A DNA stretch of 64,000 nt from the IMG/VR virus record IMGVR_UViG_3300043788_000049, positions 1-64,000 of that record; one strand, given 5' to 3'. Each line of letters opens with the position of its first letter. The stretch's first letter is position 1. The notes below the pieces were generated by a model that saw nothing but the letters and a program-made list of their open reading frames with translations, ran no database searches and was not told the origin of the DNA. Of this stretch, positions 32,204 to 49,371 are shown piece by piece. Position numbers and translations under genes: made by a program. The DNA is from a virus.

Positions 32204-32680
32204 GTGATGGCTGAGACGAGAGAAGCGGTTCTGGAGGCTTCCAATGGCGATGGTGGCTATGATGAGGAAGTCATTGTGGCCAAGGATGCGGCGAATGCGG
32301 CTGGGTTTGACCATGTAGGCGCATATTGCGGGACGAAGATGATGGCTGCGGCTATTGCGGCGCTGGATGCACATCGAAAGGCTAAGCGTGAACCAAAGGC
32401 TTCTGAGGCCAGCGTAGCGATGAGGGTTGGAAGCGCGGTTAAGGCCGAATGGGAGCGGTTCATGATGGGTCCGGACGGCGATGATGCTGTCAAAGAGACC
32501 CGAGCGCTTGGTCGCGCGGCGTTGGCGGCGCTTCGCGACCCGAATCACGAGATGATCGAGGTTGGCCGAATGGAGTTGGGCACCTGGCAGGATATCCCAG
32601 GGTCCGGATTGACGGTGGCGCGCGAGAAGATGCGGCGAAGATGGAATGCAATGGTCGAATGGGCGATAGCCAGAGGGTGA
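32204..32680 (+). CDS. Hypothetical phage protein (ARAAxxAxRxPxxxM family)
   Basis: GRAALAALRDPNHEMIEVG...WNAMV resembles 27514-27747. Confidence 0.55.
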   Translation: MMAETREAVLEASNGDGGYDEEVIVAKDAANAAGFDHVGAYCGTKMMAAAIAALDAHRKAKREPKASEASVAMRVGSAVKAEWERFMMGPDGDDAVKETRALGRAALAALRDPNHEMIEVGRMELGTWQDIPGSGLTVAREKMRRRWNAMVEWAIARG

Positions 32681-32684
32681 TGAG

Positions 32685-32936
32685 TTACGCCCTCTTGGCG
32701 CGTAGCTCATCAAGGACGTCGAAGAGATTGGGGGGATCGGTGAATGATTGCAAAGTCCAGACCCCGAATCTATTTAATCGCCACGTCCATCCAGCCTGAT
32801 GACCATTGAGCGCGTTTAGCCAAAGCACGCCACCGCGCCGGCGAAGCTGGAAATCAATATTCTTTGGGCAGATAGAGAGGGGTCCTAGCTCATCCTCCGA
32901 CAGATCGCCAACGCCTGGAAGCTTCTCAATGCTCAT
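32685..32936 (-). CDS. Small protein with C-terminal PNLFDxLDELR motif
   Basis: Ends PPNLFDVLDELRAKRA; start overlaps the upstream gene. Confidence 0.7.
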   Translation of the reverse strand: MSIEKLPGVGDLSEDELGPLSICPKNIDFQLRRRGGVLWLNALNGHQAGWTWRLNRFGVWTLQSFTDPPNLFDVLDELRAKRA

Positions 32937-33204
32937 GGGCCCGCAATTCCTCAATGATGTCAAATAGATTGGGGTTTGGGTCCAACCACACCGGACAAAG
33001 CGTGCCGTCGCACCCGTAACGCCACTCGTTCCCCAAAAATATGCGCTGCCATGTAGAGTCTGGATACTTAGAGCGATCTTCCGCCATCAGAGGGCCAAGG
33101 ATGCTCGGATAAGCCAGCCAATCGCCATCTTCCGGCAGCGCATTGACCGCTTCCAGCTCGATCGCCGTCAGCCGCCGCGCGCCTTCTCGAATCATGACGC
33201 TCAT
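32926..33204 (-). CDS. Small protein with the C-terminal motif
   Basis: Ends PNLFDIIEELRAHEH; ATGA coupling. Confidence 0.7.
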   Translation of the reverse strand: MSVMIREGARRLTAIELEAVNALPEDGDWLAYPSILGPLMAEDRSKYPDSTWQRIFLGNEWRYGCDGTLCPVWLDPNPNLFDIIEELRAHEH

Positions 33205-33479
33205 TTGCGCAACTCGTCCAAGATGTCGAAAAGGTTGGGGCCGACCATCGCCCGGAACTCCTCATCGGGGCTTATCTGTTGCCACTGATACGAGTGGCCG
33301 CTCGAACTCACGTTGAGGGCGCAGACGACACTATTCTGGGTATTGCGCAGCCAAATCTTGCCGTCAGCGGCACGCTCTACTGTCCAGTTCACCTTCTTAT
33401 CCAGCGCCCGCAGAGCCTCTAATTCAATCCGCGTTGTGATGAATCTTCCGTCATTTGGTTCAAGTGTGAGGACCGTCAT
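33201..33479 (-). CDS. Small protein with the C-terminal motif
   Basis: Ends GPNLFDILDELRK; ATG at 33479 overlaps the TylF stop. Confidence 0.7.
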   Translation of the reverse strand: MTVLTLEPNDGRFITTRIELEALRALDKKVNWTVERAADGKIWLRNTQNSVVCALNVSSSGHSYQWQQISPDEEFRAMVGPNLFDILDELRK

Positions 33480-34258
33480 TTGCGTAACCAGCGAACCGAG
33501 AAGTCCACATGCGCCAGATAGGGCCTGATCCTCAGCGTTGAGAAGAACTCGTTGCAAGCGTCCCGACATCCTTTGAGGCACCAGTCATCGATAATCACGA
33601 AGCCGCCGGGCACGACCAGATCCCATAGGTGGTCGAACGCGACCTTGTAGCTGTCGTAGAGGTCGCCATCGAGCCGCAGGATTGCGATCGGGCCAACGTA
33701 ATCGACCGGAACTGTGTGCTGGAACCAGCCCTTGTGGATGTGCAGATCGTCCAGCGGATAGCCGATTTGCGCCATCAGCCCGATCACATCGCCCAATTTA
33801 GCATCGCCGAGCGCGCCAGCGGCTTCGAGCGCGCCATCGCAGCGCCCAGGCGGCAATTTCTGCGTTTCGCACGCCCAGATTATGTCGTCCTTGTCGAACC
33901 GAGGCCACGGAATGCCCTCGAAACTGTCAAAAGCGTGCAAAGCCCGGCGGCGAGAGCCAAACTTGAGATTGGCGAGCGCCATCGCGCCCAGAGCTCCGCC
34001 CCGCCAACAGCCCAATTCAACAAATGCGCCCGGTATCGCTTCCTCCTCGCAATAGCGGACCTGATCAATTAATGTCGCAATCCCGTCATACGTGACCATG
34101 GTGTGAAGCTTGATGGCCTCGATGATCGGCCACATGACCGTGTGCTCGTCGCGATAGCCGCGCGACATGAACTGCGAGTGGATCATCGCGTCCCCGATCG
34201 AGATAGCCTGCGATGAGAAACATTGGTCCGATGGGCCAACCCCTGGGTAAATCATCAT
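33476..34258 (-). CDS. TylF/MycF/NovP-family O-methyltransferase
   Basis: PGAFVELGCWRGG, FDSFEG, KGWFQHT, LRLDGDLYDS, PGGFVIIDD, GCRDA. Confidence 0.9.
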   Translation of the reverse strand: MMIYPGVGPSDQCFSSQAISIGDAMIHSQFMSRGYRDEHTVMWPIIEAIKLHTMVTYDGIATLIDQVRYCEEEAIPGAFVELGCWRGGALGAMALANLKFGSRRRALHAFDSFEGIPWPRFDKDDIIWACETQKLPPGRCDGALEAAGALGDAKLGDVIGLMAQIGYPLDDLHIHKGWFQHTVPVDYVGPIAILRLDGDLYDSYKVAFDHLWDLVVPGGFVIIDDWCLKGCRDACNEFFSTLRIRPYLAHVDFSVRWLRK

Positions 34259-34303
34259 GCTTGATCCGGCGAGTTCCGTTGGTTAAGAGGCAGTTTATCA
34301 CAG

Positions 34304-34507
34304 ATGGAGACGCGAGTGGAAACCCCGAGCGACAAATTGGACCGAGCGAAGCGCGATAAGCTGCTCGATATTATCCGGCGAGTGATCGCCAACCCGGAGA
34401 ACGCCAAGGAAGCCGCGGACGAGATCGCGCAAGACTGGTTTCCGATGATCAAGGTTGATGCCCGCGGCGCGATACACTTTCGTGTGGGCTCGGGCCGCAA
34501 ACGATAG
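34304..34507 (+). CDS. Hypothetical protein
   Basis: First of three closely spaced plus-strand genes. Confidence 0.5.
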   Translation: METRVETPSDKLDRAKRDKLLDIIRRVIANPENAKEAADEIAQDWFPMIKVDARGAIHFRVGSGRKR

Positions 34508-34516
34508 GAGCGACCA

Positions 34517-34696
34517 ATGAAGCTGATCCTCGCGTTGTTCGTGGCCCTCGGCCTCTCGGGATGCGCCACGGGCAACTATCCGAGCCAAGACTATAGCTGG
34601 GAGCACCACGAGGACCATGGATGGGACCACCCAGACCATCATGGCGACTGGCGTCATCCGAATCACCGCCGGCTCAAACATCAGGCAAAGCCATGA
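34517..34696 (+). CDS. His-rich lipoprotein (59 aa, not in the ORF track)
   Basis: AGGAG SD; MKLILALFVALGLSG|C lipobox; WEHHEDHGWDHPDHHGDWRH. Confidence 0.7.
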   Translation: MKLILALFVALGLSGCATGNYPSQDYSWEHHEDHGWDHPDHHGDWRHPNHRRLKHQAKP

Positions 34697-34902
34697 GCAT
34701 CATTTCCAGCGTCGATCTGGCCCGCAAGCTCGTCATCATGGCGTCCGGCGAGGAAGTCCCGATCACCAATATGTTCGATCGGCACGGCGAGGAAGTGACC
34801 GACCCGCGCCGCGCCGCGACCGTCGTTGCCGGGCCATGTGAGGCGGGATGGATTGCCACTGTCCTTAGCGAGGAGGAGCGGGAGGAGTTGGAGCCAGCGT
34901 AG
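34693..34902 (+). CDS. Hypothetical protein
   Basis: ATGA overlap; MSIISSVDLARK...PITNMFD. Confidence 0.55.
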   Translation: MSIISSVDLARKLVIMASGEEVPITNMFDRHGEEVTDPRRAATVVAGPCEAGWIATVLSEEEREELEPA

Positions 34903-35173
34903 CGCGCAATTCCTCGATCACGTCAATGATGTTGGGGCCGGGCTCCTCCCACGCCTCAATGATCGGCCATTCCTCCAACTCGGGTTGGCGCAGATCGCGC
35001 GGCAGCCACCTGCCGTTGCTCATCAGAGCCCACACTCCTTGGATATTTCGTAGCATGAGCCCGTGGGCGTGCCGTGAGAGCACAAAATTAAGCGGAAGGT
35101 CTGAGCGCACTCGCTCGACCGCCCGTTCCTCAGCCTCACTCATCGGGAGGCAGTTAGGGTCATATCGGATCAT
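34865..35173 (-). CDS. Small protein with the C-terminal motif
   Basis: GPNIIDVIEELRATL near the C-terminus; ATGA coupling. Confidence 0.65.
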   Translation of the reverse strand: MIRYDPNCLPMSEAEERAVERVRSDLPLNFVLSRHAHGLMLRNIQGVWALMSNGRWLPRDLRQPELEEWPIIEAWEEPGPNIIDVIEELRATLAPTPPAPPR

Positions 35174-35418
35174 CGCCGCGCCCGCAGTTCGTCGAGGAGA
35201 TCGAAGAGGTTGGGGGCGTCTACGGATAAGACGATCCAATGCCCGTCGAGCCCCGTTTCCTTTTCCCATGCCATTCTCGGGAAATGGCCATTTTCATCAA
35301 CTGCGACGAAGGTGGCGAACTCGTAGCGAAACGTGCATATCCACTTGCCACCGCGAGGCAAAAGATCCGCGCCCGTGAAGATGCGCCCATCGGGCGTAAA
35401 GACCGGACTGCTAGCCAT
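35170..35418 (-). CDS. Small protein with the C-terminal motif
   Basis: Ends APNLFDLLDELRARR. Confidence 0.7.
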   Translation of the reverse strand: MASSPVFTPDGRIFTGADLLPRGGKWICTFRYEFATFVAVDENGHFPRMAWEKETGLDGHWIVLSVDAPNLFDLLDELRARR

Positions 35419-35653
35419 CCCGCTTGGCCTCCAGCGCGCGTAGCTCCTCGATCACGTCCACAATGTCAGGGCCGGGAGGGGGCGGGTTCTTCCACGCATC
35501 ATACTGCGCGGTCCAATCGATCCGGAGCGGATAGAGCCAATGAAGCACGAAGCCGAGAAGAAGCCCGAGCCCGAGGATCACGATTGAACCCATCATCACG
35601 ATCGCCAGAAAGCCCAGGGCGATATTCACGACCATGTCGGGATCAATCATCAC
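35411..35653 (-). CDS. Membrane-anchored small protein with the C-terminal motif
   Basis: Long hydrophobic N-terminus; ends GPDIVDVIEELRALEAKRDG; coupled to the VWA stop. Confidence 0.7.
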   Translation of the reverse strand: MMIDPDMVVNIALGFLAIVMMGSIVILGLGLLLGFVLHWLYPLRIDWTAQYDAWKNPPPPGPDIVDVIEELRALEAKRDG

Positions 35654-36807
35654 GCACTCGGGTCCAGATCGAGCAACTTCCCGAACGGCGGCTTGTTCGA
35701 ATAGCCTCCATATCGCACCCAGAGCACCGGACAGCCGGGTTCCTGGCCGAAGCTATGGCAGCACAGGTCGGTCAGATAAACGACGCCAGAGGCCTTGGGA
35801 GCGTGTTCTGCGGTCCATCGGAAGGCCGGAGCGAAATCTGTCCCCCCTCCAGGCTTCGGACACACGTTGATGATGTCGCCGGCCTCGAACTCCAACGTCT
35901 CTTGGACCGCGCAATCGCAGAACCCGACAGTCAGCTTCTCGCACGCGCTCTCATCGAGGAAGCCCTGTAGCTCCGCCATGATCGCGGCCAGGGAGCGCTC
36001 GTCCATCGAGCCCGACGTGTCGACCCAAGCGACGATATGCGAGGGCGCGATCGAGCCCGACCCTGGAAGGATTATCCCGTCGCCATAGTCGCGGCGCGAC
36101 GGGCGCGTCCAATCGGTGTCAACGATGCGTGATTCGTCCGCCCAATCCCGGAATAGCTCCTTCCAGGTGATCGTGGGCTTGTCCAAATCGGCCATCATCT
36201 TGACCAGGGGCGCGGGAATCGAGCCGACGTTCTTGGCGCGCGCCACCGCCATCGCTTGTCGCACCTGCACCTGGGCGCGGCGCTCGGCCTCCTTCATTTC
36301 CGAGGAGGCATAGGGCGGCGCAGCGTCCATCACCCCGCCGCACTTGCCGGGGTCGCTGCCATCGCCCCCCTTGACCTTCTTCGCGTTCTTGACCAGCAGG
36401 TTGTAGACCTGCTCGGTCGACATGCCCTCGTATTTCTGGTCGTAAAGGTGCGGGTTCGGCAGCTTGATGCCAGCGCGCCGCAGATCGGCGTTAATGACGA
36501 AATCGCCGGCAATGTTCCAGATGTCGCCCTGGCGATCGCCGCGGCGCGTGTGGTGGAGATAGCAAACGTGCATCACTTCGTGCGCAAGGACAGCTTCAAG
36601 CTCCTCCATCTTCAGCTTCAGGACGAACGGCGCCCAATAGAACAGGCGCTTGCCATCCGTCGCCATCGTGTCGATGCCAGAGCCCTCGGGGCCCGGATGG
36701 ACCCCCATGTGCATGATCAAGACGGCGAAGAATGGCTGGCTCATCATCAGCCGCGCCCGTGCCTTCAGGATCTTCTTCTCAGCTTCGATCTGGTCTGGAG
36801 TCAGCAT
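35650..36807 (-). CDS. DUF2201-type metallopeptidase plus VWA domain protein (MoxR partner)
   Basis: TMATDG, AHEVMH (HExxH), WNIAGDFVIN, DTSGSM (MIDAS), GGGTDF, YLTD. Confidence 0.9.
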   Translation of the reverse strand: MLTPDQIEAEKKILKARARLMMSQPFFAVLIMHMGVHPGPEGSGIDTMATDGKRLFYWAPFVLKLKMEELEAVLAHEVMHVCYLHHTRRGDRQGDIWNIAGDFVINADLRRAGIKLPNPHLYDQKYEGMSTEQVYNLLVKNAKKVKGGDGSDPGKCGGVMDAAPPYASSEMKEAERRAQVQVRQAMAVARAKNVGSIPAPLVKMMADLDKPTITWKELFRDWADESRIVDTDWTRPSRRDYGDGIILPGSGSIAPSHIVAWVDTSGSMDERSLAAIMAELQGFLDESACEKLTVGFCDCAVQETLEFEAGDIINVCPKPGGGTDFAPAFRWTAEHAPKASGVVYLTDLCCHSFGQEPGCPVLWVRYGGYSNKPPFGKLLDLDPSA

Positions 36808-37238
36808 CAGAAATCTCCATCGGCGATCTGAGCGCAAGGGATTCCAAGCTTGCGCCATACATCCACGACGCGCTTCCTGTCCTCGAAAATCATGATCGGC
36901 TCGAACCCCGCCTCGCGCGCCTCAGCCAGCAACTCGACCTTGACCACGCTATCGTCTCGATAGTCGCCAGCCTTGCGCATGAAAAGGCCATGGATAAGCA
37001 CTCCGTGCTTGGTCAGCCATTCCACTGTGAGTTGCCGGCACTCATCAGAGCGCCCCGAGAGGCACACGACTGGCGCAGGGAGCATCTGCGCCAGATCGAT
37101 CATGTGAGGGATAGGCGCGTCGCCGTCGCACGCAGCGAAGAAGGCCCGCCAATCCTTTGGCTTCTTCTGGATGTGATGCAGCCGATGTGACGGGTCCGAA
37201 AGCGTCCCATCGATGTCGAAAAACCATGCCCGCTTCAT
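36807..37238 (-). CDS. HAD phosphatase (PNKP 3'-phosphatase-like)
   Basis: FDIDGTL, LSGR, D..VK, FEDR..VV. Confidence 0.88.
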   Translation of the reverse strand: MKRAWFFDIDGTLSDPSHRLHHIQKKPKDWRAFFAACDGDAPIPHMIDLAQMLPAPVVCLSGRSDECRQLTVEWLTKHGVLIHGLFMRKAGDYRDDSVVKVELLAEAREAGFEPIMIFEDRKRVVDVWRKLGIPCAQIADGDF

Positions 37239-37249
37239 TTTCTGCCCCC

Positions 37250-38245
37250 CTAGATCGAGATGTCCTGGTTCCGCGTCGCCCACTCGGTGTAGGCCTTGGT
37301 GGTCTTGAGCGAGGGATCGCGCTTGACCGCATCCGTGACCAGCGTCATCTCGAAGTCCTTGGTCAACCGGCCGCCATAGATGAGGATCGCTTCGAAATTT
37401 CCCCGATCCGCCTTGCGGGCCAGAGCGCCAACCACCGCAAATTGGGTGTTTGGAGCCGATGGAACCGCAGCCTTCCTCGGATGCGCGATGATCTCGGCCA
37501 AGGGCGGTAAGGTTTTATACGTCTGAATGAACGCCTCCAGTTCCGACGCCGCGCCCTCGCCAACTAATCCCTCGATCAGCTTTTGCCGAATATCGTCATC
37601 GGCATGGATGACCTTGGCGACCTGGACCCAGGACCGCGGCGACGGGAACGCCCGAACCTCGATGTTCTGCGGGACATTGTGGAGCAAGGCCGGCCGATAG
37701 CGCAGGAAGGCGCAGATGAGCGGTTCGATCAGCGCCTTGTTGGCCCAGGACTGCCAAGCGTCCATGTCCTCCTCGACGTCGATCCAGGCAAAGCGATTCG
37801 CCAAGCCAACCGGCATCTTGTTGACGCCGGAGCGGTCGATCTGCCGATTGCCCGCGGCGACGATCATTGTCCGGGGAGGCAATTTATGCAGGCCGACAGC
37901 CCGATTCCACACCAGTTGGAAAAATGCCGTTTGCACAGAAACGCTTCCCTGAACTAATTCGTCGATGAACAGCATCGTCGGCCTGTCGCCGTAGCTCTCC
38001 AGCTCCGTCAGCCACTTCGGCTTGGCCCAATCGACGCCCGCATCCGCCCGGAAGGGCAGGCCACGAACGTCAACTGATTCGAGCGTCGTCGCGCGCTCCT
38101 CGACCAGCACAGCGCCCAGCTCATCGGCGACCTGATAGACGCCCTCCGACTTGCCGATGCCGTTCTTGCCGGAAATCATCACCGACATCCCAGCCGCGAG
38201 ATAGGCTTTCAGGCACTTCTTAGCCATCGTGACGTTCATAGGCAC
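37250..38245 (-). CDS. MoxR-like AAA+ ATPase
   Basis: GKNGIGKS (Walker A), DVRGLP, LFIDEL (Walker B), AAGNR, LANRF, PSPRSW. Confidence 0.9.
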   Translation of the reverse strand: MPMNVTMAKKCLKAYLAAGMSVMISGKNGIGKSEGVYQVADELGAVLVEERATTLESVDVRGLPFRADAGVDWAKPKWLTELESYGDRPTMLFIDELVQGSVSVQTAFFQLVWNRAVGLHKLPPRTMIVAAGNRQIDRSGVNKMPVGLANRFAWIDVEEDMDAWQSWANKALIEPLICAFLRYRPALLHNVPQNIEVRAFPSPRSWVQVAKVIHADDDIRQKLIEGLVGEGAASELEAFIQTYKTLPPLAEIIAHPRKAAVPSAPNTQFAVVGALARKADRGNFEAILIYGGRLTKDFEMTLVTDAVKRDPSLKTTKAYTEWATRNQDISI

Positions 38246-38906: not shown

Positions 38907-38996
38907 ATGAGAATCACACCGATCGAATTAGCTCTGATCCTCGCCCTGGTGGCGCTGGCTGTCACCGTCTCTATCGCAACAACCGCAGGGGTGTGA
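38907..38996 (+). CDS. 29-aa hydrophobic peptide resembling a Flp/type IV pilin alpha1 helix
   Basis: AAGGAGG SD; MRITPIELALILALVALAVTVSIATTAGV. Confidence 0.6.
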   Translation: MRITPIELALILALVALAVTVSIATTAGV

Positions 38997-39007
38997 GAAT
39001 ATTTGGC

Positions 39008-39286
39008 ATGAACCCCCACGCCCAGGCAGTCGAGGCGATCATGGAGGCGGTGGCGGAATATGCGCCGCCGCTGGATAAGCCTGTGGGGTTTCTCCATGAA
39101 TTTCTCGACCGCGCGGCGTTATTGGACTTGGACGGAGCCGAAAACTATTTGCGGTGGTTGCTGAACTTGCCGACGGACACGCCCGGCATTCTCGTGCAAC
39201 ACGGATTCCGGTGGGAACGGGAGCCTAATAAGCGGCGCAGAGAGATCCTCGTGAACTGGCTCCGGCGCGTAAGGTTCATGAAATGA
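39008..39286 (+). CDS. Small protein with N-terminal HxxxVxxI motif
   Basis: MNPHAQAVEAIMEAVAEYAPP. Confidence 0.65.
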   Translation: MNPHAQAVEAIMEAVAEYAPPLDKPVGFLHEFLDRAALLDLDGAENYLRWLLNLPTDTPGILVQHGFRWEREPNKRRREILVNWLRRVRFMK

Positions 39287-39828
39287 CCAAGCGCCACGTC
39301 CACCACATCGACGGCAACCCCAACAACCACGACCTCGCCAATCTGAGGTTGGTAAAGGCGAGCGTTGGCGTGTCGCCGAACTTGAACCCGGTGCCGCTTG
39401 GGAAGCTCTACGGCCGCTCCCCCGGCTCGCTCCCTGCCGACTTCGAAGAAGCGATGGACCGGATTAATTCATTCAACCGTCGCTTCAAAACCCGCCTCGT
39501 GAAGGTGACGCCCCCGCCGGCTAACAAGGAACATGCGGCGGAGGTCCAGAGCATTCTGGAGACGGTGTGCTCGGTGGACTTCGCGCCATCGCCCCAAGGA
39601 TTGCCAGGGATGCCCACTGAGGCTGATTTCGCCTATGCAGCCAGTATGGACAGCGCGGGCCGCGCCCTTGGGCATGTAGGCCGTCTTGCTGCCAATCTCT
39701 GCGGGTATTCAGAGCAAGTATTCGATTGGACTGTTGGCGAGGGACGCGCTTGGCTAGGGGCTACTCGCTCCTTCCGCCGCGATTGGCTCCGAGGCAAGGT
39801 CGAGCGCGCCTTGAGGGCCCGCCGATGA
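39283..39828 (+). CDS. HNH-remnant N-terminus fused to a motif-bearing domain
   Basis: VHHIDGNPNNHDLANL, then internal EHAAEVQSILETV. Confidence 0.6.
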   Translation: MTKRHVHHIDGNPNNHDLANLRLVKASVGVSPNLNPVPLGKLYGRSPGSLPADFEEAMDRINSFNRRFKTRLVKVTPPPANKEHAAEVQSILETVCSVDFAPSPQGLPGMPTEADFAYAASMDSAGRALGHVGRLAANLCGYSEQVFDWTVGEGRAWLGATRSFRRDWLRGKVERALRARR

Positions 39829-40124
39829 CCCACGCCGCCGAGGTCGAGCGCATCCTGGCCCATGCCGAGGAGTATCTGGCTCCGCCGCAGCGGGTTTTTG
39901 ATGCAGACTGGCTGACGGAGTGGTGCAAGGGCATGAGCGGTTTTTCGGCAGGGATCGCCGCCATATCCTGCGTGAGTTATTTCAAGCTAGATGAGCCAGA
40001 GGCGATGGTCGCCGACTTGCTTAACCGCCTTGGCTGGAGGGTGGCCGGAGCTACCGCGCGCGTCACAATCATTCGCAATGCCTTGAGCATCTTTGGCGTC
40101 CGGACGAAGCAGGCTCGCCCATGA
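39825..40124 (+). CDS. Small protein with the N-terminal motif
   Basis: MTHAAEVERILAHAEEYLAPP; ATGA overlaps. Confidence 0.7.
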   Translation: MTHAAEVERILAHAEEYLAPPQRVFDADWLTEWCKGMSGFSAGIAAISCVSYFKLDEPEAMVADLLNRLGWRVAGATARVTIIRNALSIFGVRTKQARP

Positions 40125-40420
40125 CCAACGACGCCCATAGCGCCCAGGTGGAGGCGATACTGGAGCAAATCGGGGCGTTTGCCTTCACCCCAGGAACCAA
40201 CCTGCGGGTCTGCGTAGGCCAAATCGTTCCAGGTGATGTGATCGTTTGGGACACATGCCAAAGGATCGTGAGAAAAGTCCGGCATACCGGCGGCCAATAT
40301 ATCGAAGTCTCAATGAGAGGCGTTGACGGTAAGGTGTTCGACGTCGATTGGGACGTCACTCATCACGTCGAAATCCTCACCCCGCCATTGCCGGAATGTA
40401 TCGCAAGAGGCTTGCTATGA
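40121..40420 (+). CDS. Small protein with the N-terminal motif and an SH3-like beta domain
   Basis: MTNDAHSAQVEAILEQIGAF...VGQIVPGDVI. Confidence 0.7.
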   Translation: MTNDAHSAQVEAILEQIGAFAFTPGTNLRVCVGQIVPGDVIVWDTCQRIVRKVRHTGGQYIEVSMRGVDGKVFDVDWDVTHHVEILTPPLPECIARGLL

Positions 40421-40644
40421 ACCCCGCCGATCACAAAGCCGCCGTCGAGGCGATCGAGGCAAAGGTCGCGGAGTATGAGGGGCCAGTGCCTGCCCACGAT
40501 CGCTGGACTGTCGATTTGGGTAGCACAACCATCACGCCACTCTTGAGCGGCAACTTTAACGTGCTGAGTGGGTATTACCTTGTCGCAACGCCGGAAGAGG
40601 CAGCAAAAAACCAACGAGCCTTTTGGGAGAACCTAGACCTATGA
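40417..40644 (+). CDS. Small protein with the N-terminal motif
   Basis: MNPADHKAAVEAIEAKVAEYEGP. Confidence 0.65.
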   Translation: MNPADHKAAVEAIEAKVAEYEGPVPAHDRWTVDLGSTTITPLLSGNFNVLSGYYLVATPEEAAKNQRAFWENLDL

Positions 40645-40889
40645 CCGACGCCGTGACCATCAAGTCCTTCTCCGAACTCGCCAAGGAATGGCGGACCCGC
40701 AACCGCTACTCCCGCCCCCAGCTCTCCGAGCTGACGGGATACTCCCCCTCGGCCATCCAGGACATCGAGGAGGCGATCTACCGCTCCCCGCCCCATCCGG
40801 TCAGCCCGGAGGTCATGCGGCGCTACCGGCTGATCTGCGCCGCGGTGGAGCACAAACTGACGGATTGGGAATTTACCGATCGGGGATGA
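40641..40889 (+). CDS. XRE-family HTH regulator
   Basis: KEWRTRNRYSRPQLSELTGYSPSAIQDIE. Confidence 0.75.
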   Translation: MTDAVTIKSFSELAKEWRTRNRYSRPQLSELTGYSPSAIQDIEEAIYRSPPHPVSPEVMRRYRLICAAVEHKLTDWEFTDRG

Positions 40890-40890
40890 A

Positions 40891-41163
40891 ATGACCCACG
40901 CCTCACAGGTCCAGGCCATCCTCGATCGCGTCGCGGAGTGGGAGACGCCGCATGCCGCGGTGATCGAAGCAGCCTTGGAGCAAGCCGCGCACATGGCTCC
41001 GGGCGAAGCCTTACGCTGGCTCAACGCTCGCTTCGGGACGCCAATCCCGCAGTTTTGGGTCCAGCACGAGGTAGGAACGTGGGGATCGATAATAAAGATT
41101 GAGGAGCGCATCGTTTGGCTGCGGCGAAATTGCCTCAGCCCGACGCTAGGCTCCGGGTCTTAA
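40891..41163 (+). CDS. Small protein with a tandem N-terminal motif (probable paralogue of 39008)
   Basis: [37 protein letters not shown]; shares LRWL..VQH..WLRR with 39008. Confidence 0.7.
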
Positions 41164-46146: not shown

Positions 46147-46625
46147 GGGTCGTCTTGCCTCGCTATTCCCATGTCCATGCGCGCCTTGGACCCCTCCAGC
46201 ATCTTGACCGCCACCGCCCGGAAGGCGTCGTAGGCCGCCAGGAACTCCTGCCGCTGCTCCGTGGTCATTTCGAGGCTTGTCGGGCCGTAGATGGAAACCC
46301 AATGATTGACGCCACCCTCGGTGGTGTTGAACTCCAGGCAGCGCTGGACGGGCGGGGGTGCGGGTTGTGACGCGATTGCAGGGTGCCTAACTGTTTGCTC
46401 CGCGACGACCTTTCGCATTTCTGCCTCTAACCCCCTCTCGGCGGCGATGAGCTGTGCGCTCAGACCGTCAGCCAACGGCAGTCCATTACGGAGGGCCGGA
46501 CGCACTTTCGTGGCATTGAACATCTGCGGTTTTCTCCTGAGTCGGGCCCCTATTTGATCGGCCCATAGGGCGACCGCCAGCAGGACCCCGATGGCGGCGG
46601 TGATGGCCCAATGGGCGGAGGTCAT
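46143..46625 (-). CDS. Hypothetical protein with N-terminal TM helix
   Basis: Coupled at both ends. Confidence 0.5.
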   Translation of the reverse strand: MTSAHWAITAAIGVLLAVALWADQIGARLRRKPQMFNATKVRPALRNGLPLADGLSAQLIAAERGLEAEMRKVVAEQTVRHPAIASQPAPPPVQRCLEFNTTEGGVNHWVSIYGPTSLEMTTEQRQEFLAAYDAFRAVAVKMLEGSKARMDMGIARQDDP

Positions 46626-47695
46626 GCGTGTCCTTCCAGTTCCTTCTTTCTTGCCTCGATGATCGCCAGCGCCTCGTGCTCGACGTCACTAGTCATATTG
46701 GGGAGGGAGTTGCGGAGCTTGCGCTGGGCCGGTTGTTTCCACCAACGGTCCAGTTCACCCCGATCCGTAATCCGCCCGATCGTGAGAAAAACATAGTTCG
46801 GATAATCCTGACCGGTTCGCGCCTCGATCACATCCGCTAACGGGCCAGCGGGGACGGCTGGGTCCGCGTCAGCCGCCCCCGTCACGCCCGCGGAAGGCTC
46901 CAGAGCAGGGGTAGGACCCTGGGCTTCCGCGGGCGCTGGCGATGCTCCCTTGTCGATCGTGGAAGGAGCGCTCGCTTCGGTCGCCGGAGCGCTTTGCTCC
47001 AGCGTTTGGTGGACATGGTCGGCATTGAAGCCCGCGCGCGCCGCAGCGGCGGGGCTGAGCCGGCCGAGCACGTTCGTCTTGGGGGTCACATCCTTGGCGT
47101 TGTCGGCGCCGATCGCCGAATCCTCAAGCTCGTCCTTACCGTAGGCACCCAGGAGAATATCTGGGCAATAGCGCCGGCACCATGCGCGCGCCGCCATATA
47201 TGCCTGCTGTTGGTCGGGATCATTCTTCCAAAGCGGTGAATTTTTTGGGTTAATGTCCTTGAACTTTGGTGTCCGATATTCGAGGGCGTCGACCTCGCCC
47301 TTCATGTGGCCGGTGCAGATGCAGACGCGCTCTGGCCCTTCGCCTTCATAGGTAAACCGCAGGCGTTGTTTCAATGGAGCCCGGCGCTCGATGACGGCAT
47401 GAAGAAGCTGGGCAAAATATCCTATCTGATCGTTGACGACATAAGACATTCGGGCAAGCGCAAAAGGCGAAAACCCCCACTCGTCCGCCTGAACGCAGAT
47501 AGCCAAACACGATCCTATGTTACCACGTAAATAGAGCGGGACTGCCTTGTCGGAGACGGCCATTAACCGCGAGAAATCCATCATCTCGGCGACGTTCTTG
47601 AACGAAATGCCGCCGACCTTATCGTCAATTTTGATAAGAGCTGTCTTTTCCTGATCGATTTTGCTCTCGATAGCTAAAACACGGTTGTCGCTCAT
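46622..47695 (-). CDS. RecT-like ssDNA annealing protein
   Basis: VPLYLRGN.GSCLAI..QA..W..SPF...NSPLWK.DP.QQ..Y.A.R.W.R.YCPD.LLG.Y..DE. Confidence 0.85.
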   Translation of the reverse strand: MSDNRVLAIESKIDQEKTALIKIDDKVGGISFKNVAEMMDFSRLMAVSDKAVPLYLRGNIGSCLAICVQADEWGFSPFALARMSYVVNDQIGYFAQLLHAVIERRAPLKQRLRFTYEGEGPERVCICTGHMKGEVDALEYRTPKFKDINPKNSPLWKNDPDQQQAYMAARAWCRRYCPDILLGAYGKDELEDSAIGADNAKDVTPKTNVLGRLSPAAAARAGFNADHVHQTLEQSAPATEASAPSTIDKGASPAPAEAQGPTPALEPSAGVTGAADADPAVPAGPLADVIEARTGQDYPNYVFLTIGRITDRGELDRWWKQPAQRKLRNSLPNMTSDVEHEALAIIEARKKELEGHA

Positions 47696-48249
47696 TGTTG
47701 CCCCCATTTGCCCCAATATTTTACGGCCGCTGCGGAATACGCAGCGCTTGCTTCTTCCGGCGTTCCAAATGCGCCAAGATGGATGAGCGTGCCGTTAATT
47801 CTTATCTTCGCGTGCCACCGCACGGTCTTCCTAACGGCTCGAAAAACACCCCTAAATCCAGACGTATTGTCGATTTGCTTGTTGCGGTTGCGAGCGTTTT
47901 CAACCTGCGTTGCAGGTCTAAGATTTTTCCACCTATTGTCAGACTTAACCCGGTTTATATGATCAATTTCGGCGATCGGCCATTCGCCGGTAATTATCAG
48001 CCAGATTAAGCGATGCGCTAGATACAGCCGACGCTTAATCTGGACCGCGACATACCCCTTTTTACCAATGGTGCCAGCAATTTGCCCAGCCCACCTTTTG
48101 CGCCACCACAAAAGCTTTCGGCCAGTAAACCCAGGCCATTCTTTCCACCGTAAAATTCCTGTTTCGCTTTCATATTCCAATATTGACCTGACAAATTGCG
48201 CCGACAGGTCGCTCTTCAATGGCTGGCCGTTATTGGCGAGAGCAGTCAT
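47692..48249 (-). CDS. HNH-AP2 homing endonuclease
   Basis: YLAHRLIW..DHINRVKSDNRWKNLRPAT..NTSGFRGV..HLGAF. Confidence 0.87.
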   Translation of the reverse strand: MTALANNGQPLKSDLSAQFVRSILEYESETGILRWKEWPGFTGRKLLWWRKRWAGQIAGTIGKKGYVAVQIKRRLYLAHRLIWLIITGEWPIAEIDHINRVKSDNRWKNLRPATQVENARNRNKQIDNTSGFRGVFRAVRKTVRWHAKIRINGTLIHLGAFGTPEEASAAYSAAAVKYWGKWGQQ

Positions 48250-49184
48250 TCCCCTTCCATCCTTAGCTTTTGCTCGATCACGCCGCGGCGGCGCTCGCTT
48301 ATTTCCAGATATTGAACTTCCTCTTGATTTCCCCCAGGGCCAGCCCACAGGCCCGAGTTGAACGCCTTGACGAAACGCTCCAGGGCAAAATGGTTTTGCT
48401 TTTCCCCTAAAACCAGATCGTGCGGCTTGAGCGTGACCATCCGAGCCGAATAGGGAGGGGTCTTGCGGACGAAGTAGAAGGAGAAGTCCTCGATCTCCTG
48501 ACCGAATAAAATCCGGTGGCCCTCCGCGACTAATGCAGCTTGTTGCTGATAATTATATTCCCCGACGGTGCGAACGAGATCGTCCCACTTCACGCTCTGG
48601 GTTGTCTTGAGATCCAAGTAGTTGCCCGAATCAGTCGGGATGACGTCGGGCCGCGCGAGCAGCCAGATCCCCGTGCTCTCGTCCTGCCATGCCATGGTCA
48701 TTTCTATCAAACCATTGAGCACTCCCGCGCGCACCAGGGGCAGCTTGCCCAGCCCCGTCGCCATGCCTTTGATGTCCTCGACCATGTCGGGCGTCAGGAC
48801 GGTCAGGTCCGCCTCGGCGGCCTCGACGAGCCACTTCTTGCATTTGAGAGAATTGCCGCTCCATGGCTTCTCGTTGCCCTTCTCGTCCGTGTAGGTTTCC
48901 GGCCGGATGACGAAGCTCTTGCGAAACTCGGATTCCCCCATGAGCAAATGGTGGGTCGCGCGCCCGATGATGAGGTCTTTGTTCTCGGGCTTCTCGATCC
49001 GCTCCGGGTTGTAGGGCGAAAACGCCCAATAGTCGGCCTCCGAATCATCGAAGATTGTGCGGAGACTGGACGAGGACAGGGTGGGACCGACGCAAAGTCG
49101 TCCACTATGATAAGCGGAAATTCCTACGTTCGAATAAACGCCGGGCCTGTCGATGGGCTGGCCGGACCAGGGGATGATCTTCAT
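48246..49184 (-). CDS. RecE/exonuclease VIII-like PD-(D/E)xK nuclease
   Basis: YHS..LSSS, GRATH, ARPD, DLKT, Y.QQAA. Confidence 0.85.
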   Translation of the reverse strand: MKIIPWSGQPIDRPGVYSNVGISAYHSGRLCVGPTLSSSSLRTIFDDSEADYWAFSPYNPERIEKPENKDLIIGRATHHLLMGESEFRKSFVIRPETYTDEKGNEKPWSGNSLKCKKWLVEAAEADLTVLTPDMVEDIKGMATGLGKLPLVRAGVLNGLIEMTMAWQDESTGIWLLARPDVIPTDSGNYLDLKTTQSVKWDDLVRTVGEYNYQQQAALVAEGHRILFGQEIEDFSFYFVRKTPPYSARMVTLKPHDLVLGEKQNHFALERFVKAFNSGLWAGPGGNQEEVQYLEISERRRGVIEQKLRMEGE

Positions 49185-49371
49185 CGCCTTGCCCACAGCA
49201 CGAGAAACGGCAGGCCGGTCACGGCGCACAAGACTAGCCCGAACAAAAAGCCGGGGATGCCGTGATGAAGGCAATATTCAGCTATTTGGAACCCATCGAC
49301 GATGTCCGTGACAAACAAAACGAACATGGAAAGCACGGCAGTCATTATCCAAGCACCCAATAGATCTCTTT

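Follow-up and report, generated by a model that had tools for sequence, protein, structure and literature searches.

Six small genes on the minus strand of an uncultured virus genome, referred to here as g1 to g6, lie at positions 32685-35653 of the window, that is, of the 64,000 nucleotides analysed here, with which a single phage contig of 87,271 bp begins (IMG/VR record IMGVR_UViG_3300043788_000049). All six open reading frames (ORFs) end in one shared C-terminal motif, P[ND][LI][FIV]D[VIL][LI][DE]ELR. Our best explanation is that they would be old tandem paralogues of one undescribed small protein of a probably N4-like soil phage, with a constant helix at the C-terminus that would dock onto one partner. 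We regard this explanation, taken whole, as somewhat probable, and most of that confidence belongs to its paralogue part. As predicted from models, the soluble form (g1 to g5, ~80-100 amino acids (aa)) would consist of a short N-terminal helix, a four-stranded antiparallel sheet with two invariant tryptophans, and a capped amphipathic C-terminal helix. The sheet and the N-terminal parts diverge fast and, among close relatives, are swapped between gene slots, the C-terminal module staying nearly constant. The helix would then offer a common contact surface, the variable bodies would give each member its own specificity, and in g6 a polyproline linker would hold the same helix out from the membrane. 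All copies within a lineage carry that lineage's own form of the tail. This would fit co-evolution with one lineage-specific partner, which may belong to the phage or to the host or may be the copies themselves.

Results

The C-terminal motif is conserved as a peptide

Gene starts are given here as recorded in the protein database, not as those of the longest ORFs. With these starts, g1 (32685..32936, 83 aa, soluble, database entry P0005) has the tail PNLFDVLDELR at 32700-32732; g2 (32926..33204, 92 aa, soluble, P0002), which overlaps the start of g1 by 11 nucleotides (nt), has PNLFDIIEELR at 32941-32973; and g3 (33201..33479, 92 aa, P0003), joined by ATGA-type overlaps to g2 and to the gene of a TylF-type O-methyltransferase, has PNLFDILDELR at 33207-33239. 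In g4 (34865..35173, 102 aa, soluble, P0001) the tail PNIIDVIEELR at 34904-34936 is followed by a 12-residue proline-rich extension, which is the same in the orthologous tail of the metagenome locus L026. The tail of g5 (35170..35418, 82 aa, soluble, P0009) is PNLFDLLDELR at 35182-35214, and that of g6 (35411..35650, 79 aa, membrane-anchored, P0004), whose start overlaps the stop codon of a VWA protein gene, is PDIVDVIEELR at 35438-35470. A preliminary description of this stretch put the proteins at 80-100 aa; with the database starts, and not those of the longest ORFs, their lengths are 79-102 aa. It also described one of them as a membrane protein, and indeed g6 has a 33-residue uncharged hydrophobic segment, followed in order by DW......AW, the linker PPPPG and finally the tail.

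Scanned with a degenerate DNA pattern of the 11-residue motif, the window gives six matches and each of 100 shuffles gives none. All six matches are on the minus strand, 1-12 residues before the stop. The motif is missing from the rest of the 87,271-bp genome, as is a looser core ([DE]x[LIVM][DEQ][DEAQ]L[RK], <=30 residues from the stop). The six C-termini quoted in the preliminary description all read as given there, at the coordinates given there; where it went on to speak of seven tails, the whole-genome scan finds six only.

Within the 33-nt tails of the window, none of the 11 second codon positions varies and all 11 third positions do (42% pairwise identity). First positions vary in six cases, always yielding L/I, N/D or F/I/V, and the 30-nt flanks are about 30% identical. 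Conservation is thus at the level of the peptide and not that of a DNA repeat, as had been proposed from the synonymous variation. The pattern P-[ND]-x-x-D reads as a helix N-cap with a capping box. On the helix, L, F/I/V, V/I/L, L/I and L make up a hydrophobic face with D, D/E and E opposite and an invariant arginine near the end, and the charged residues (D, D/E, E, R) vary as little as the hydrophobic ones do. The proposal of an acidic amphipathic helix agrees with AlphaFold models of g3 and g5, in both of which the tail is predicted to be helical.

A second lineage was reached via the VWA gene, in L090/L091, an IMG/VR contig of 98.8 kb with a VWA protein 58% identical to that of the window. 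Here, a tandem row of six small genes sets in at the VWA stop codon and runs uninterrupted, and all six carry a variant of the tail, WDAIEELRASEARR, with the pattern [MI]WDAI[DE]ELRA[ST]EA[RG]R. The core common to the window and L090 tails is D-x-[IL]-[DE]-[EA]-L-R-A. In the L090 tails codon positions 1, 2 and 3 are 89, 89 and 27% identical, with arginine encoded by CGN or AGA and serine by TCN or AGC. The bodies show the same LP..W / W..W signature as those of the window, and one of them, K5, resembles g3 (z 4.5). To judge from these codon patterns, the tail is held nearly constant by purifying selection on its amino acids and the copies are old in both lineages, since the third positions are only 42% (window) and 27% (L090) identical and the codon families of arginine and serine are mixed.

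One version of the tail per genome, with another version in the other lineage, would also be explained if the tails bound each other, the proteins forming homo- or hetero-oligomers through their C-terminal helices with g6 anchoring the assembly to the membrane. The presence of six copies in both lineages and the translational coupling of the genes fit such a scheme. However, an 11-residue helix is short for a bundle and L090 has no membrane-anchored member, and we consider binding among the tails themselves unlikely.

Relationship between the protein bodies

The preliminary description saw dissimilar bodies, interpreted as varied cargo domains that share a portable tag. We compared bodies with everything from the motif onward removed, using pairwise local alignments against shuffles. 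The closest relative of all other members is g3, which gives z values of 4.5-5.7 with g2, g5, P0006 (an orthologue of g1 introduced below) and K5 of L090; several other pairs give 2.5-3.6. No clear case of 1:1 orthology of copies across the two lineages emerged from these comparisons. In leave-one-group-out profiles built from bodies only, with 1000 shuffles each, g3 scored 20.6 bits, the protein in the g2 slot of L026 (L26_g2) 13.0 and g2 9.1, and for each of the three none of the 1000 shuffles scored as high. Against the family profile the g1 body has p=0.02 and the g4 body, marginally, p=0.05. The body of g5 resembles g3 (z 4.7-5) and K5 (z 3.1) and is not significant against the profile; that of g6 is without similarity to the other bodies in both the pairwise alignments and the body profiles. 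Similarity outside the motif therefore goes beyond chance for g1 to g3, is marginal for g4 and g5, and is absent for g6.

The same picture is given by an alignment of 14 members from the two lineages, in which W, W, L and R are invariant and LP, R, G, P, D and E nearly so, spread over the full length. The AlphaFold model of g3 (mean predicted local distance difference test, pLDDT, 72) has a short helix, four strands, an extra helix and the tail helix, with the tail pLDDT below that of the core. That of g5 (pLDDT 74) has a short helix, four strands and the tail helix, whose pLDDT of 80-88 is the highest in the model. The order of elements is thus alike in the two, with one extra helix before the tail in g3.

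Based on these comparisons, g1 to g3 and the members from relatives are full-length paralogues that have diverged from one small alpha+beta protein, and g4 and g5 are probably paralogues too. In contrast, g6 looks like the C-terminal module of the family re-used behind a membrane anchor. The view of the bodies as dissimilar does not hold for several of them, which are significantly alike with their tails off, share conserved positions along their full length and, in g3 and g5, have a common predicted topology; nor are the carriers varied cargo, as they are mostly paralogous and only g6 has the module on a different N-terminal part. Full-length paralogy had been named in the preliminary description itself as the outcome that would speak against it, and for the soluble members this is largely what we find, g6 standing apart. 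The main correction to that first reading is that we are dealing with a family of paralogues and not with a tag on unrelated cargo.

The tail helix might also simply be the best-conserved element of the fold, covering the sheet and packing on the two tryptophans, with no common partner, the paralogues acting through their variable surface or drifting. This is the main rival of our explanation, and we give it a real if minor chance. Indeed, the only invariant residues of the bodies are the two tryptophans, which lie in the strands just before the helix; the tail of g5 has the top pLDDT of its model; and the helix-capping features read from the sequence (proline, an N/D cap and an aspartate three residues later) are consistent with it. 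Nevertheless, we favour an exposed docking surface because the charged residues of the tail, which are presumably exposed, are as invariant as the hydrophobic ones, because g6, which lacks the sheet, has the helix behind a membrane segment and a PPPPG linker, and because all copies of a lineage share that lineage's version of the tail. That the g3 tail has a lower pLDDT than its core also speaks against the rival.

Distribution of the family

The family is undescribed, has no Pfam, PHROG, PDB or fold relative and is found in a narrow phage clade only. None of g1 to g6 matched Pfam or PHROGs, and a PDB sequence profile search gave no match. Foldseek against PDB and BFVD and a wide VIA-align search, both run with the models, gave a best Z of 4.3 and nothing at E <= 0.001, and scores from the ESM Atlas did not rise above those of shuffled proteins. 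Only three members beyond the window's own came out of two protein searches, one word-indexed over 5.8 billion proteins and one run in full with HMMER over 1.84 billion representatives: P0006, a 93-aa ENA protein that is 52% identical to its orthologue g1, and two proteins of L026. An exact scan for the motif DNA pattern gave no match in IMG/VR; metagenomes had 37 and genomes 31. Among the 37 metagenome matches, the only true small-protein C-termini were those of L026 (three tails in 1.9 kb) and of a second locus, L011, and none of the 31 genome matches was a true tail, the rest being internal or in unrelated proteins. The expectation of a tag on many unrelated proteins across genomes was accordingly disappointed, true C-terminal tails being found in L026 and L011 only.

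Several apparent matches were rejected. Those to giant proteins (P0008, P0011 and others) are judged spurious, these being surface proteins with PKD, fn3 or LRR repeats that repeatedly match profile positions 12-40. C-termini reading KTFPNFFDVL[DE]ELR in L012, L022, L023 and L061, which we take to be the ends of 5-enolpyruvylshikimate-3-phosphate (EPSP) synthase (AroA), match the pattern by convergence (KTFPNFFDVLEELR); the likeness apparently arose in the C-terminal helix of an unrelated fold. In Albimonas sp. CAU 1670, a DUF4381 protein (L060 6686-7351) in a MoxR-DUF58-DUF4381-BatA operon reads PPNLVDLLDELRQPPPPPP just before its membrane helix. We treat this match as chance because 16 other DUF4381 N-termini, which read ..dls-GLRDIHLP.., are only weakly like the tail. 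The layout of the Albimonas protein mirrors that of g6 (membrane helix, PPPPG, PDIVDVIEELR), probably by coincidence. Finally, a match to DAIDALRALE in L181 and L211 belongs to an unrelated family of small genes; these viral genes (L211 1-2600 and L181) start with MTEHLPEC.. and/or end with ..GDQP.

Turnover between close relatives

Close relatives reveal how the array changes. Between the window and L026, the DNA of the TylF gene is 82% identical and that of a three-gene island on the opposite strand 86%. The g3 tail with the g3/g2 junction is 92% identical (49 bp) and the g2 tail with the g1 start 96% (91 bp), whereas the g3 and g2 bodies give no DNA alignment to L026. The protein in the g3 slot of L026 (L26_g3) combines g3-like ends with a middle like that of g2 (score 110, z about 20), the g2 slot there has the g2 tail on a distant body, and in L011 the g1 tail, 95% identical in DNA, is attached to a differing body in the g1 slot. 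As read from these alignments, the slots keep their ends, and it is the middles that change, by exchange or replacement.

A plausible route of this swapping is recombination at the conserved ends, because each body is flanked by the tail of the previous gene and its own tail, and because the phage encodes a RecT-like annealing protein and an exonuclease VIII-like protein (46622-47716 and 48246-49274, minus strand). The two form a phage recombination pair that could act on short conserved gene ends. In principle, such events could be the very reason for the conservation, the stretch being kept for a nucleic-acid function as a recombination site, a ribosome-binding region or an RNA element. Tails and junctions that are 92-96% identical next to replaced bodies, the two recombination genes and GAGGA-like tail codons upstream of some downstream starts would all suit this idea. 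However, a DNA repeat or RNA element should be conserved independently of codon position, whereas the third positions are near random and the second invariant. The ribosome-binding role was likewise rejected, as the tails of g1 and g4 have no coupled gene downstream. No Rfam match was found in the block, nor any sigma-70-like promoters or terminators above the level of shuffles. As a primary cause, nucleic-acid function is thus largely refuted, and we attach hardly any credence to it; conservation of the peptide more likely leads to recombination at the tails than results from it.

It is worth noting that a 158-aa gene facing g1 (32204-32680, plus strand) shares only its first ~12 codons with L011 104-556 (MMAETREAVLEAS; 38 bp, 100% DNA identity). 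The rest of the protein is replaced in L011; in this slot, too, an end is conserved and the body swapped.

Genomic context and the AAA+/VWA pair

The source phage is probably N4-like, to judge from its VWA gene and a predicted ORF of 2993 aa at 78265-87246. No deposited phage matched the stretch in a blastn search of the phage collection at a distant setting, and one soil-metagenome DNA run carries a small share of it as scattered short contigs, while no RNA run is listed as containing it. The array lies in a non-structural region, with the capsid, portal and terminase genes >10 kb away.

The same-strand (minus) gene run is headed by an AAA+ ATPase gene (37250..38245; phrog_1297, 5.7e-79), followed by a gene with a HAD-type PNKP phosphatase domain (36807..37283; Pfam PF25109, 9e-30) and then by the gene of a DUF2201_N metallopeptidase-like and VWA protein (35650..36858; Pfam PF13203 and PF09967), at whose stop codon the array begins. 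The TylF gene (33476..34258, minus strand; Pfam PF05711, 3.3e-38) splits the array. Overlaps of 1-11 nt occur at all junctions (VWA/g6, g6/g5, g5/g4, TylF/g3, g3/g2 and g2/g1) with the database starts, in agreement with the earlier statement that three of the genes are coupled behind VWA and three behind TylF; g1 and g4 have no coupled gene downstream. In L090 (8867-11110, compared with 35650-38245 of the window) the AAA+ gene is still beside VWA, and both the TylF and the HAD/PNKP gene are absent. On this comparison the two look like insertions in the lineage of the window.

Between TylF and g4 lies the opposite-strand island (34304..34902, plus strand) of three small genes. The first, of 67 aa, is absent from L026; the second, of 59 aa, is lipoprotein-like, with MKLILALFVALGLSGC followed by a tail rich in His, Asp and Trp. 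The third, a 68-aa member of phrog_12097, is convergent with the array in L026 and L090 as it is in the window, where it overlaps g4 at the latter's 3' end. A second array (38993-41163, plus strand), divergent from the run of the AAA+/VWA genes, encodes 5-6 small proteins with a common N-terminal helix, H[AS]xxV[EQ]AI[LMI]..v.e, a proline-containing linker and differing bodies.

The AAA+ and VWA genes belong to the core of all N4-like phages, N4 gene 25 being annotated with a 'vWFA domain' (PMC4193335). The VWA gene of the window is the counterpart of N4 gene 25 (gp25), and the AAA+ gene is taken as that of gene 24, by position only. The latter is read as MoxR-type from its pairing with VWA, Pfam AAA being matched only at E 0.087. 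NorQ/NorD and CbbQ/CbbO are such MoxR-vWA chaperone pairs. The VWA protein has HExxH in its N-terminal domain and an intact DxSxS metal ion-dependent adhesion site (MIDAS) motif, and across 36 homologues H76, E77, H80, D263, S265, S267, T323, T346 and D347 are invariant. Homologues occur in many phages, several of them with N4-like genome size. Upstream of the VWA gene of one other phage (L153 17-2419, plus strand), four ORFs, three of ~200 aa and one of 59 aa at the start of the locus, end in LP[KE]HLGDY[IV]R[KR]VQF.

The preliminary description saw the tail as a portable helix and named the VWA/MoxR machine among its candidate partners. On this reading the tail would be an address tag by which the AAA+/VWA-peptidase pair captures the small proteins as clients or adaptors, for instance through an acidic residue of the tail at the VWA MIDAS. 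Several observations suit this proposal: the array starts at the VWA stop codon in two lineages, the DxSxS..T..D MIDAS and HExxH are intact, and a common mechanism has been proposed for MoxR-vWA pairs in which vWA captures substrate peptides and MoxR then acts (PMC7159879). However, the pair belongs to the N4-like core (PMC4193335), and yet no such tails were found at 80 further VWA-bearing viral loci (VWA <=41% identical), so that among the 82 VWA loci examined only L090/L091 has family-like tails. The link to VWA that had been suggested thus stands as far as position is concerned, which is kept in the second lineage, and fails for these 80 loci. Moreover, three of the six genes follow TylF at a distance of 1.9 kb, the proteins have paralogous bodies and are not varied cargo, and the tail is a capped helix, whereas the MIDAS ligands are described as extended peptides (PMC7159879). 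Complex prediction of the VWA protein with Mg and Zn against the family alignment (g3 first) scored 0.00 in both runs, which counts neither for nor against binding. We think it quite unlikely that the tail is an address for this pair. The same low probability applies to a modified form of the proposal, in which the constant helix would be the handle by which the core AAA+/VWA-peptidase pair grips a diversifying set of adaptors or clients, with g6 tethering one copy to the membrane. If it were true, the array would be the first natural client set for a widespread phage AAA+/VWA module and an exchangeable 'specificity cassette' system evolving by recombination at conserved tails.

The sliding clamp of the host had also been named as a candidate partner. 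Bacterial clamp-binding motifs read QL[SD]LF or QLxLxL, and the tails resemble them in being short hydrophobic peptides near a C-terminus with 'LF'. Unlike these motifs, the tail is an acidic helix with 1-12 more residues after it, and the L090 variant (WDAIEELR) has no LF. The defining glutamine is absent at or before the hydrophobic run in 20 of 20 tails (window, L026, L011, P0006 and L090), and on sequence the clamp thus fails as a candidate.

Discussion

The nearest known kind of system is the tandem, lineage-specific expansion of small early or middle phage genes, as in the SPO1 host-takeover module and the arrays of jumbo phages. Like these, the array consists of small genes coupled back to back, which belong to one diverged family with fast turnover in a narrow clade. 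Unlike them, it combines a nearly invariant 11-residue C-terminal helix with remaining sequence close to the limit of detection, and one of its copies is membrane-anchored. The array is set apart by demonstrable paralogy, the sharp contrast between tail and body, the membrane-anchored copy and its position behind VWA in two lineages.

A second likeness is to the internal proteins of phage T4, which are fast-changing small proteins with one short terminal targeting peptide. N4-like phages are known to inject a virion protein. By analogy, the tail could load the proteins into the capsid for injection with the DNA, as with the T4 internal proteins or with encapsulin cargo, and a fast-changing small set with a common terminal peptide is indeed what such loading would look like. 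However, the T4 signal is N-terminal and is cleaved by the head protease, and the T4 proteins are unrelated and packaged, whereas here the peptide is C-terminal, the bodies are paralogous and the genes lie in a non-structural region, >10 kb from the capsid and portal genes. None of the features expected of T4-type capsid targeting (N-terminal peptide, protease site, location in the head module) was found; in particular, no protease site pattern was seen, and a membrane member would be unfit for packaging. We consider capsid loading very improbable.

The likeness to MoxR-vWA pairs (Kaur et al. 2020, PMC7159879) is one of position and charge: the genes stand directly behind an AAA+/VWA pair with an intact MIDAS, and the tails have invariant acidic residues. 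It differs from peptide capture of that kind in that the tail is a capped helix and that most phages with this VWA gene lack the family.

Some points weigh against a family of paralogues with a constant docking helix. No binding partner has been found, and both the binding in trans and the single partner are what we infer from the conservation. The helix could be conserved for packing on its own sheet, which the two invariant tryptophans and the high pLDDT of the g5 tail would fit. Given that g5 and g6 are not significantly like the profile, paralogy is not proven for these two and thus not for all six. The AlphaFold models are of middling confidence (pLDDT 72-74), and their shared alignment may bias them toward one topology. 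Expression is deduced from conservation of the sequences. In addition, lineage-specific tails fit equally well with co-evolution and with independent expansions from one ancestor in each lineage.

The case is a modest one in that only a few uncultured soil phages have the family. What it offers is an unusually clean split between a near-frozen 11-residue helix and bodies that have diverged to the edge of detection and are swapped between slots. Such a split usually marks a constant docking element combined with variable recognition surfaces, as would be expected in an arms race between phage and host. The partner of the helix, if found, would give a role to a block of 'hypothetical' genes, and it might also explain the conserved AAA+/VWA pair of N4-like phages.

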